The position numbers were made by a program. Positions 9,001-12,000 of a stretch of 20,528 nucleotides of DNA are shown here, piece after piece; the stretch's first letter is position 1; each line of letters starts with the position of its first letter. The DNA is from a virus. Taxonomy: Duplodnaviria > Heunggongvirae > Uroviricota > Caudoviricetes. Location: IMG/VR virus record IMGVR_UViG_2778261537_000015, positions 1 through 20,528 of that record; one strand, written 5' to 3'.

Positions 9001-12000
9001 AAAATATTGCTATTGTGAAAAATCTGGATTTCATTCTTTCCCCTTGTAAATTTTCCTCTGTTTGTATCCGTTAACTGAAGCAAAAGCACGCAACAGTTAG
9101 TTTTGCGCAGGATACCAGATGATAATGTGTAGTTGGAGTAGCGCGGTTTTAATGCAAGCATTTTGTTTTTGTTTTATGCTTGCTTGTATGTGTGTGCAGT
9201 GCATATAATGCAAGCATAGATCACAACAAAGGTGCTTGCATTATGACTGAAAAGAAAAGTGGTGAAGGGAAAGCTAAGGGCGGGATCGCTCGCGCAAAGT
9301 CGCTGACTAAAGAGCAGCGTTCTGAAATAGCAAAGAAAGCAGCGGCTGCAAGATGGAAAAGTAAGATTCTCAGAGCAACTCATCGTGGTAACTTTTTAGA
9401 TGATTTTGGCATTGATGCTGAATGTTATGTACTGGATGACGAGTCGAAAACTGTCGTTGTTACGAAAACTGGATTATCTCAGCTGCTAGGGATTGGTGAA
9501 CATGCCAGGGATTTAGATCAACTGCTTGGCGCTCAGTATATGAGCAAATACCGAGATCTAGAATTGCAGCGAAAAATGGAAAATCCCTATAAATTTCAAC
9601 TTACTTCGAAGTCTAAAACCGTTCATCAAGCATTAGGTTATGACATTACAGCAATTGTTGATATTGGTAGGGCACTAATAGAAGCCAAAGATAATGACGA
9701 TCTACCACAATCACGGTTAAAGGCCGCGGCTGCAGCGCAGAGACTTATTAATGCCTCCGCTAAGGCGGGAATTAAGGGGGTTGCGTATGCGCTTGCTGGT
9801 TATCGTCCAGAAGTTCAGGCTGTCATTGACGAGTTCAAAGCGTTTGTTCGTGAAGAGGCTCGTCAATATGAAAAGGAATTTCCAGATGAGCTATACGAGG
9901 AGTGGTATCGACTGTACGGCCTGAACAGGCCAGAGAAAGGACGGCCTATTCGTTTTGGGCAGCTAACCAACATGCAGATATACACCCCGCTAGCAAAGAG
10001 TAAAGGTAAAATCCTTGAACAGATTCGAGCTAGCCGAGACGAGAACGGAAAACAATCTGATAAGTTGCACCTGTTCCTTTCTGAAATTGGTGTCAAGGCT
10101 TTGCGTCAGCATATCGGTAAGCTTCTTGGTGTCGCAGCGATGAGTGAGACAAGAGAAGAATACGAAAAAGGAATAGAAAAGGTTTTTGGAAGAATGAAAC
10201 CAGAAATCTAATTATGAAACCCACCGTCAGGTGGGTTTTTTGTTTAGCAGTTCTCTCAACTTTTCGTTCTGTTCTCTGAATTTTTCCTGTATTTCTTTTT
10301 GCATGGCGATCACTTGGGCTTGAAGTTGAACTAGCGCATCAACATTTAGCGGAACCGAGACGCTGTTGATTTTGTCTGCTATTTCCCCAAGAGTATTTTC
10401 TGCATTCAAGGCATCTTCCAGTATCTGCACAATCTCTGAGTTCATAGAGCGCCCGTTTCGTTTGGCTCGTTCAGCTATAGCATCTCGCATTCCGTCAGGA
10501 AAACGGAGGTTGAACTTGTCGTAGTCTTTTACTTGTTTTTCGGCCATTGCAAATCTCTCAAAAAAAATCATGGTGCCATATTGCCATACGATTTCAATGG
10601 TGGCATTATGGCCTTCATGGCGTCACTTTGGCACCAAATAAAGGAGATTAGATAATGCAAGATACACTTTTCACTGAGCGCAAAAATATCAAACTCAACC
10701 TTCGCCTTCCATCACGGCTGAATGAAGACCTTCGCCGCCTGGCGGAAATGGACTGTATATCTCTGAACTCTGCAATTGTTCGTTTGCTGGCAAAAGGTGT
10801 TAGGGAAGAGGTGGCGAATGGTCGCTAAAAACAGCGAAGCCCCAATGGCTGCAACCATTGAGGCTTCTAAATTACCAGTTAACCACGAGAAAACTGATAT
10901 GACTAGTTTAGCAATTGCAGATCGCACAATCAATGTTCCATTCCACGGAACAAATCTCTTTTTGGTCAGCATTAACAATGAACCTTACGTTCCTATGAAA
11001 CCCGTTGTAGAAGGCATGGGTATGGTTTGGGCTGCTCAATTTGTTAAGTTAAAACAGAGGTTTGCCAAAGGTATTTCGGAAATCGAAATACCTTCTGCTG
11101 GCGGTAAACAGTTAATGACATGTCTTGCCTTTCGTAAATTTGCGGCTTGGCTTTCAAGTATTCAACCAAACAAAGTCCGTCCTGAAATCCGCGACAAGGT
11201 AATCCAGTATCAGGAAGAGTGTGACGATGTGCTCTACGAGTACTGGACTAAAGGCCATGTGGTTAACCCACGCAAAGCTAAAAAGGCGTTGCCGGGCAAA
11301 ATCACCACTGAACAGCAGGAAGCCATTAAACAACTCGTCATGAGTCGCGGTCAGTCTCTGCCAAAAGAAAAACAGGCTAAGGCGATGATCACCATGTGGT
11401 CGTCACTGAAATCCCATTTTGGATGTTCGTACAAAGAAATCAGTGAGGAGCAGTTTACCGAAGCACTGTCACTTGCTGCTCGTATTCCGCTTGAAGGCGA
11501 ATTCATCGGCAAGTCGAAACATAATGAGATGAGTTGTTTTGATTGGAGGATGAATGTTCATAACCTGAACTCGGCGTGCATTCATCTTGATGCCATGTAC
11601 AGAATATGGAGAGACGAAATGGAACCCGCTTTGCGATTGCTTGGCTCTCCGGTTGCGACCAGATTTTGCGGAAGAATTGCAGATTGCTATTCCGTAACTG
11701 CAAGCGTTAAGAAAAGTCTGGAGGATGCCGCAGGGCTGAAAGGCTTACAACCATTTTAACTACCTGCACGAAAAGTGCAGGTCAAGAACAAACGCAACGA
11801 CCCAGCTTCGGCTGGGTTTTTGTTTAATGGAGAGTAGATGGGCATAATCGATTTAAACACAGCAGACATATTCAATGCTATCGGTGGTGGCTCTCCGCTT
11901 TCGATTATCGACAGCGTTCTGCATCCTCAGTATGTGATTCGTGACAGGGAAACTGGCGAGGTTGCTCTTGAGTTCAGCGGTATGGCATCCGTACAGCCAA

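Follow-up and report, generated by a model that had tools for sequence, protein, structure and literature searches.

P63C genes are common in temperate phages and prophages, often next to cI or mnt, which are typical positions for genes expressed in the lysogen. Iyer, Koonin and Aravind are said to have defined P63C in 2002 as the C-terminal domain of p63 from Myxococcus phage Mx8, and reportedly found it joined to Bro-N, KilA-N and other DNA-binding modules. To our knowledge, P63C proteins have neither a known function nor a solved fold. Here we analyse the control region of a P63C-family gene in the window, a stretch of 20,528 nucleotides (positions 1–20,528 of IMG/VR virus record IMGVR_UViG_2778261537_000015, Caudoviricetes) that represents an Escherichia coli element integrated at tRNA-Arg/yfdC. 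The 90 bp directly ahead of this gene are probably a four-site operator array laid over the gene's own sigma-70-type promoter and bound by the P63C protein, which would thereby control its own synthesis negatively.

The window protein is a bona fide member of the family. It matches Pfam PF10546 over residues 199–286 (E = 6.8e-14; 52.7 bits against a cutoff of 26.1) and PHROG 2384, of unknown function (E = 1.7e-104), and has 1679 homologues at E ≤ 1e-10, including those of Stx phage 933W and Salmonella phage ST104. A putative N-terminal DNA-binding part followed by C-terminal P63C fits the described architecture, with a central domain that matches neither Bro-N nor KilA-N in Pfam. Where the locus differs is in its predicted operator, autoregulation and KGG..ARW arm: the literature searched describes none of these for the P63C family, nor any function, and a literature search on the operator word itself found nothing relevant.

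Between 9152 and 9241, one 10-bp word occurs four times (ATGCAAGCAT, ATGCTTGCTT, ATGCAAGCAT and GTGCTTGCAT) at spacings of 24, 32 and 24 bp, and the array ends 1 nt 5′ of the ATG (9243–9245) of the P63C-family gene. A sequence-only reading of this DNA had described two near-identical inverted-repeat units, each a 10-bp word and its inverted copy around a 14-bp spacer, with starts offset by 56 bp, the downstream unit overlapping a TATAAT (9204–9209) and ending 1 nt before the ATG. All of this can be read in the sequence. Its exact 11-mer direct repeat is also real but is in fact a 12-mer, TAATGCAAGCAT, with copies at 9150–9161 and 9206–9217, 56 bp apart. Sites 2 and 4 each differ by one mismatch from the exact complement of the site 1/3 word, the inverted repeat of the downstream unit is perfect at 12/12 positions (9205–9216/9233–9244), and the region as a whole can be described as a 34-nt imperfect inverted repeat or as a 99-bp imperfect palindrome. 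The idea of a dimer on two half-sites, which went with that first description, is too simple; on the comparisons given below, the conserved unit is the 10-bp word used four times, with promoter hexamers embedded in sites 2 and 3.

That such a repeat is unlikely to arise by chance, as the sequence-only reading held, is borne out by the numbers. With up to one mismatch and on both strands, 2.84 matches to the 10-mer are expected in the 20.5-kb window and five were seen, four of them inside 90 bp. The half-site search elsewhere that had been proposed returned only an isolated fifth match, with one mismatch, at 13221, and ON470589, a related phage with a complete genome (45.9 kb), has these four sites as its sole cluster; judged by that genome, there is no wider regulon. 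The decisive argument against chance, though, is the recurrence of this four-site array at 66 non-identical loci.

For the comparison, one genome per species was taken, which gave 44 loci at 44–76% amino-acid identity, from Enterobacterales, Burkholderiales, Alphaproteobacteria, Myxococcota, Syntrophaceae, Acidobacteriota, Binatia and an Oscillospiraceae metagenome-assembled genome (Bacillota). Of the 44 loci examined, 35 have the TGCAAGCA/TGCTTGCA quadruple, at spacings of 22–25, 30–33 and 22–25 bp: the window itself, L004 (an E. coli locus nearly identical to it) and 33 out of 42 full-length loci of P63C homologues in genomes. The core GCAAGCA/TGCTTGC does not vary in any of 34 genome loci, in contrast to the spacers: that of unit 1 varies between loci, often as a run of A or T, with the distance from site 1 to site 2 held at 22–25 bp. 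Once viral contigs are added, there are 66 non-identical copies of the array (the elements, below), each directly 5′ of a P63C-family gene. We also scanned 2.9 million IMG/VR viral contigs blind to protein, using the pattern TGCAAGCA-N14-17-TGCTTGCA-N22-25-TGCAAGCA, which covers three consecutive sites. The scan returned 49 contigs, 47 of which have the full quadruple, and a P63C-family gene abuts the array in 46 of these 47, the lone exception being cut off by the end of the locus. Reduced arrays were found in Gordonia phage Barco and Pseudomonas phage Lodos, whose proteins have N-termini of the window class; here sites 2 and 3 are kept at the promoter, 30 bp apart, and the outer sites are lost or altered. 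On this comparison, the sites are inherited with the P63C gene and with no other gene, whereas the other neighbours vary.

The repeated word overlaps the core promoter, sites 2, 3 and 4 lying over the −35, the −10/+1 and the ribosome-binding site, respectively. In the window, the −10 hexamer TATAAT matches the consensus at 6/6 positions and the −35 candidate TTGCTT at 3/6, with an 18-bp spacer. Comparison lends strong support to this candidate promoter: across the 66 elements, the hexamer inside site 2 is TTGCAT in 40, TTGCAA in 15 and TTGCTT in nine (64 together), a TAnnnT −10 is fused to site 3 in 53, and the −35/−10 spacer is 17 bp in 31 and 18 bp in 29 (60 together). In every element the start codon begins −1 to +2 nt from where the site-4 core ends (+2 in the window), and a G stands 2 nt before this 8-bp core (TGCTTGCA) in 27 of 34 loci. 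Site 1 provides an internal control. Ahead of site 3, T and A at −12 and −11 are enriched (27 and 28 of 34 loci), but ahead of site 1 they are not (10 and 16 of 34), which indicates that the promoter is conserved and not merely the repeat. The fixed distance between sites 2 and 3 is likewise explained by promoter geometry. Thus the placing of operators over the promoter and start codon of the P63C gene, as first proposed, receives support from the comparison. From the position of the −10, transcription is predicted to start at about 9216; the predicted mRNA from there onward is unstructured (z = +2.05), so that the ribosome-binding site would be open when the gene is transcribed.

The P63C gene is the sole constant companion of the array in the 66 elements, and the protein most likely to bind the four sites is, on this comparative evidence, P63C itself. 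The candidate recognition element is an N-terminal arm with the motif KGGxARAxxLxxExRxxIAxxAAxARW, in which G13, G14, R17, R37 and W38 are invariant across 91 homologues. AlphaFold2 places two helices in the arm, at residues 11–20 and 23–39, with modest confidence (pLDDT 59–72). Searched alone, the arm had no matches in Pfam, NCBIfam or the PDB sequences, tblastn of the arm against phages found P63C genes exclusively, and the model of the whole protein has no convincing structural neighbour. Against Pfam, the N-terminus gave no Arc or ribbon–helix–helix (RHH) match, and no helix-turn-helix is detectable either.

The arm and the sites also appear to vary together. Orf23 of ST104, a neighbour of cI, is only 29% identical to the window protein and differs from it in the central domain, yet it shares both the motif (KGGVARANALSAEERSAIARKAAAARWG) and the four sites; viral contigs L062, L081 and L083 belong to this type as well. 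Homologues that are without the motif (L035, L040, L043 and L044) are also without the sites. In a second N-terminal class, ..LSxxGAxKGGxARAxxLxxExRxEIAxxAxxxRWxKAGK, a different operator is seen, the palindrome TATACTTGC-N5-GCAAGTAT. This class is found with a window-type body in Acidobacteriota (L015, L017 and L026), where the palindrome lies ∼60–130 nt before the start codon, and with a different central domain in gp48 of Gordonia phage Kuwabara (palindrome at L103:1115–1136), directly after the immunity repressor gp49. Two N-terminal classes are thus paired with two operator classes over two central-domain types, a two-by-two pattern that is expected of a DNA-binding arm and its operator. 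A further N-terminal variant (KGGKARAAKMTAEQRKESSRKAVAAKKE) is present in L0095 of phage 933W, where three ACGTGCA repeats just before the start of the gene, ACGTGCAT-N9-TTGCACGT-N5-ACGTGCAT (L049:1375–1420), replace the TGCAAGCA sites. The second-class palindrome is also written TATACTTGC-N5-GCAAGTAT(A).

The sequence-only reading had left the binder open between the Mnt/Arc-like repressors and autoregulation. Autoregulation fits the data, but Mnt/Arc does not, since the array is kept where no Arc-family gene is nearby, as in ST104. We rejected Mnt/Arc as the binder on co-occurrence, a Mnt-like gene being present in 4 of the 66 flanks and Arc in one. Nor does the locus belong among the Arc/Mnt RHH repressor–operator systems, for the N-terminus of P63C has no RHH match and the genes are not co-inherited.

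Our proposal is as follows. The basic two-helix arm would be the recognition element, and the rest of the P63C protein would supply oligomerization and effector function. P63C, which probably dimerizes or tetramerizes through its C-terminal part, would set its N-terminal arms on the four words. With sites 2–4 occupied, that is, the −35, the −10/+1 and the DNA to about +30, RNA polymerase would be kept off. Site 1, ∼60 bp upstream of the predicted start, probably adds cooperativity, as sites 1 and 3 and sites 2 and 4 are both 56 bp apart. The level of P63C in the lysogen would thus be held low and constant, which fits the position of the gene beside the lysogeny repressors mnt or cI. We infer the binding by P63C, repression as its sign, the transcription start and the stoichiometry from sequence comparison, and 'tight repression', the term used in the earlier description, is an extrapolation from the geometry of the sites. 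The positions of the features are collected in Table 1.

Table 1. Features of the P63C control region and gene (window coordinates)
Feature	Position	Strand	Remarks
Upstream part of mobile P63C block	9097..9151	.	E. coli similarity starts at 9097 (query position 108 of 8990-9330), ~80 genomes
Site 1, ATGCAAGCAT	9152..9161	+	Putative distal operator site, centre ~-60 from predicted transcription start
Unit 1 spacer, TTTGTTTTTGTTTT	9162..9175	.	A/T-rich; sequence not conserved
Site 2, ATGCTTGCTT	9176..9185	-	Inverted copy, 1 mismatch; holds -35 candidate TTGCTT 9180-9185
-10 hexamer TATAAT	9204..9209	+	18 bp after -35 candidate; last two bases are the first two of site 3
Site 3, ATGCAAGCAT	9208..9217	+	Overlaps -10 and predicted transcription start ~9216
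Shine-Dalgarno-like AGGTG	9230..9234	+	Overlaps 5' edge of site 4
Site 4, GTGCTTGCAT	9232..9241	-	Inverted copy, 1 mismatch; fills gap from Shine-Dalgarno to start codon
P63C-family gene, 322 aa	9243..10211	+	Pfam PF10546, PHROG 2384
N-terminal motif coding region	9267..9359	+	Residues 9-39 (GKAKGGIARAKSLTKEQRSEIAKKAAAARWK); putative DNA-binding arm

Several points weigh against this proposal. A promoter and terminator scanner called no promoter in the window, its silence being explained by a −35 that agrees with the consensus at 3/6 positions only and is too weak for its rule; the weakness of this hexamer is itself a point on the same side. The literature search brought up no binding, reporter or transcription-start data. 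The second operator class comprises only four loci, and the DNA-first scan for it was unspecific: TATACTTGC-N4-6-GCAAGTA gave at least 120 viral loci (L104–L223), none of those listed adjoining a P63C gene. Finally, the coding sequence of the arm lies no more than 120 bp from the sites, and linkage as one recombination block could explain the covariation without an interaction. As to the scan, TATACTTGC-N4-6-GCAAGTA is very common in viral contigs, many copies having the form TATACTTGCGTTTTCGCAAGTA, and is presumably the operator of another abundant phage regulator.

A more ambitious version of the proposal would make the arm a new portable DNA-binding module and the TGCAAGCA array its fixed site, together forming a self-contained 5′ control cassette grafted on different P63C-type bodies. 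The cassette would have spread between phyla on phages and on a hitherto unrecognized IS1-family group with P63C as obligatory partner, the array would divergently control transposase and P63C, and P63C would be an element-encoded regulator of transposition or maintenance, or an exclusion factor, and not an ordinary accessory gene of phages. We regard this larger scheme as unlikely.

The inverted repeats might instead act as nucleic-acid hairpins, unit 2 hiding the start codon and unit 1 serving as a terminator or insulator, or the 99-bp palindrome forming a cruciform. If transcribed, unit 2 is predicted to fold with −16.4 kcal/mol (z = −5.1), unit 1 with −10.3 (z = −2.7) and the whole with −43.3 (z = −5.5), and transcripts reading through from upstream would hold both hairpins. 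However, it is the sequence that is conserved and not the pairing. Beyond the 10-bp word, Watson–Crick pairs occur at about the chance rate at every flanking offset in the 66 elements, and mismatches such as C:A are tolerated at the single variable stem position; complementarity that stops at the 10-bp word makes a hairpin function unlikely. In addition, the conserved −10 puts the transcription start in the left arm of unit 2, so that the gene's own mRNA would be without that arm and unstructured. The 34-nt imperfect inverted repeat does give sub-threshold Rfam matches to microRNA precursors, which are explained by the long palindrome, but no family reached its threshold in an Rfam scan of 8900–9400 (E ≤ 10). 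There is no terminator-like T-run and no terminator was called in the window, and Klebsiella, Rahnella and Mixta have a separate rho-independent terminator before site 1. With pairing at chance, no Rfam family and no terminator, we did not class the region as a structured cis-regulatory RNA or an intrinsic terminator. We give hairpins as the explanation of the array a low probability, although a secondary role on read-through transcripts is possible.

It is also conceivable, as a variant of autoregulation and not a separate explanation, that P63C binds the sites but acts as an activator or dual regulator. Class I and class II activators work from positions such as about −60 and −36, where sites 1 and 2 lie, and the −35 elements (TTGCTT/TTGCAT) are weak. 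Sites 3 and 4, however, extend over the −10 and the start as far as about +30, which would normally block RNA polymerase, and the −10 of the window is a perfect TATAAT. We consider a positive role improbable.

A third possibility comes from loci outside the Enterobacterales, many of which have an IS1-family-like transposase gene (a helix-turn-helix and DDE_Tnp_IS1) divergent from P63C. Of all 58 elements whose left flank was long enough, at least 12 have such a gene. The sites could then be binding or regulatory sites of this transposase, and the enterobacterial copies relics. In L068 and L096, 9 nt lie between site 1 and the start of the IS1-like gene, a mirror image of P63C at site 4, and terminal inverted repeats bracket the gene pair in L018 (21/21 bp) and L021 (27 bp, 96%). 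On the other hand, Escherichia, Klebsiella, Leminorella, Rahnella, Yersinia, Mixta, Phaseolibacter and phage ST104 have no such gene, an IS1-like neighbour never having been detected in Enterobacterales elements, and yet their four sites and promoter geometry are intact. Arrays kept in this way imply selection without a transposase. The sites are, moreover, internal to the element and not terminal. We think this explanation very doubtful, and the window itself, with no DDE_Tnp_IS1 gene next to the array, was not assigned to the IS1 family, whose transposase and terminal inverted repeats are both present in L018 and L021.

The IS1-like loci are of some interest in themselves. The gene is found together with P63C in L018:777–3534, L021:1590–4279, L011, L012, L027, L028, L029, L034, L036, L039, L041, L045, L046, L068 and L096; its product has 280–320 aa and, in L021, also Zn_ribbon_InsA. 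The pair in L018 is bracketed by a perfect 21-bp inverted repeat, GGTAGTGTCTCAGTTTGAAAT, and the repeats begin GGTAGTG...; such terminal repeats are clear in L018 and L021 only, those at the other loci being weak or at chance level. P63C may therefore be a passenger or partner in a group of insertion sequences, through which it could have spread so widely. In loci with the IS1-like neighbour, an extra conserved motif, TATGCTTGAGCGG or the palindrome ATGCTTAGCGTCAAGCAT, lies 15–40 nt upstream of site 1, between this site and the start of the IS1-like gene; the loci are L011, L012, L019, L021, L027, L029, L034, L037, L039, L045 and L046. Its sequence is similar to the operator word, and it could be either a fifth site or a control element of the divergent gene.

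Lastly, binding in trans by a different phage regulator, whether the neighbouring Mnt/Arc RHH repressors or the main repressor of the prophage, is highly improbable: the P63C gene does lie 15 bp from a convergent mnt homologue, with arc and ant beyond, and elsewhere directly follows a cI-type repressor gene, but the word and its geometry are unchanged beside mnt, cI, an IS1-like gene or none, the Mnt-like and Arc counts given above are low, the word (≤1 mismatch) is not in the mnt–arc intergenic region and occurs outside the array only at 13221, and it is implausible that repressors of different families and phyla should share one operator.

The sequence-only reading had also let the divergent secreted-protein gene share the control region. 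This was not supported. The gene, which codes for 152 aa with a signal peptide, accompanies the array in 1 of the 66 elements and is missing from L003 and L004, and the block of similarity among E. coli genomes starts at 9097 whereas the gene starts at 9034, upstream of the block edge. We accordingly rejected it as a co-regulated partner. Neither its product nor the P63C protein matches a defence system in PADLOC-DB. Copies of 9036–9139, from the divergent gene to site 1, are present at 86–92% identity in other E. coli genomes without a P63C gene or annotation, so the intergenic region is itself mosaic.

Among 5426 complete E. coli genomes, the P63C block is present in about 80. Downstream of the P63C gene in the window, 15 bp away, is the convergent Arc-family mnt homologue (10227–10571), followed by arc and ant. 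The element as a whole (window 1250–19320) has xis/Ea22 genes, directly followed by a complete contractile-tail module: a neck terminator at 3692, a DUF3383 sheath at 4237, the tube at 5739, an assembly chaperone at 6173, a 591-aa tape-measure-like gene at 6792, baseplate genes at 11838–16742 (including baseplate J), and a fibre and assembly protein at 16745–18039. The P63C–mnt–arc–ant block sits in the middle of this module. No head, terminase, lysis or replication genes were seen in the window. The element is a deleted prophage or else tailocin-like, and its arrangement is shared by L002 and L003. At other loci (L005, L008, L009, L013, L050 from ST104 and L103 from Kuwabara) the P63C gene is often directly downstream of a cI/XRE-type repressor gene in the same orientation, and in enteric cI–P63C pairs there is a rho-independent terminator between the two genes. 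The position after cI is that of lysogen-expressed exclusion genes such as lambda rexAB.

A practical consequence is a correction to annotation, as some start codons in the databases have been placed within operator sites, namely those of ST104 orf23 and of a coding sequence at 36353–36757 in ON470589. ST104 orf23 (L050:1417) is annotated from the ATG of site 3, and its true start is probably 1453, directly after site 4. In ON470589 (L224:36353–36757) an opposite-strand 134-aa 'hypothetical protein' starts at an ATG in the reverse complement of site 1, and an open reading frame of 69 aa at 8952–9161 on the minus strand is its equivalent in the window. These two reading frames and the misplaced starts are probably annotation artefacts of the ATGC..GCAT word.

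Phage repressor–operator pairs normally diverge fast. Here, unusually, word and spacing hold from Enterobacterales through to Acidobacteriota, although protein identity falls to 45–50%. Conservation of the operator across phyla points to either recent horizontal spread or a strongly constrained interface. The conserved self-operator, although predicted, would give the P63C family its first concrete and testable property, with a DNA target, a 30-residue arm and a promoter.

Among known systems, immI of P22 (Mnt/Arc) resembles the locus in having small symmetric operators over promoter hexamers and in the self-control of a lysogen-expressed gene, as proposed here, and it shares the neighbourhood, the window having mnt–arc–ant. 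It differs in that its binder belongs to the Arc/RHH family, whereas the putative binder here has no Arc match in Pfam; in that it has one operator of 17–21 bp, in place of four sites at 24, 32 and 24 bp over 90 bp; and in that its operator is phage-specific, whereas the word in the window is conserved across phyla. The lambda and P22 CI/Cro operators OR1–3 and the promoters of type II toxin–antitoxin systems are alike in that a repeated word straddles the −35, the −10 and the start, and in that the gene's own product binds, as we propose here; cooperative occupancy of spaced sites is also plausible for the array. CI, Cro and the antitoxins, however, are dedicated repressors or antitoxins, while here a 322-aa multi-domain protein with no detectable helix-turn-helix or RHH would do the binding, the start codon is joined to the last site and the hexamers lie within the word. 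In IS1, the promoter of the transposase is repressed by InsA, which binds to the terminal repeats. The likeness is to the non-enteric loci, where a divergent IS1-like gene shares the intergenic region and there are GGTAGTG... repeats; the IS1 sites are terminal, whereas those described here are internal, and the window and all enterobacterial loci are without a transposase. As far as can be judged from sequence comparison, then, the mode would be classical negative autoregulation like that of Mnt/Arc, CI/Cro and the antitoxins, exercised by a protein outside the Arc/RHH and helix-turn-helix families. What appears to be new is the family, the candidate arm, the fusion of promoter hexamers and start codon to the operator word, and conservation at the nucleotide level across phyla.

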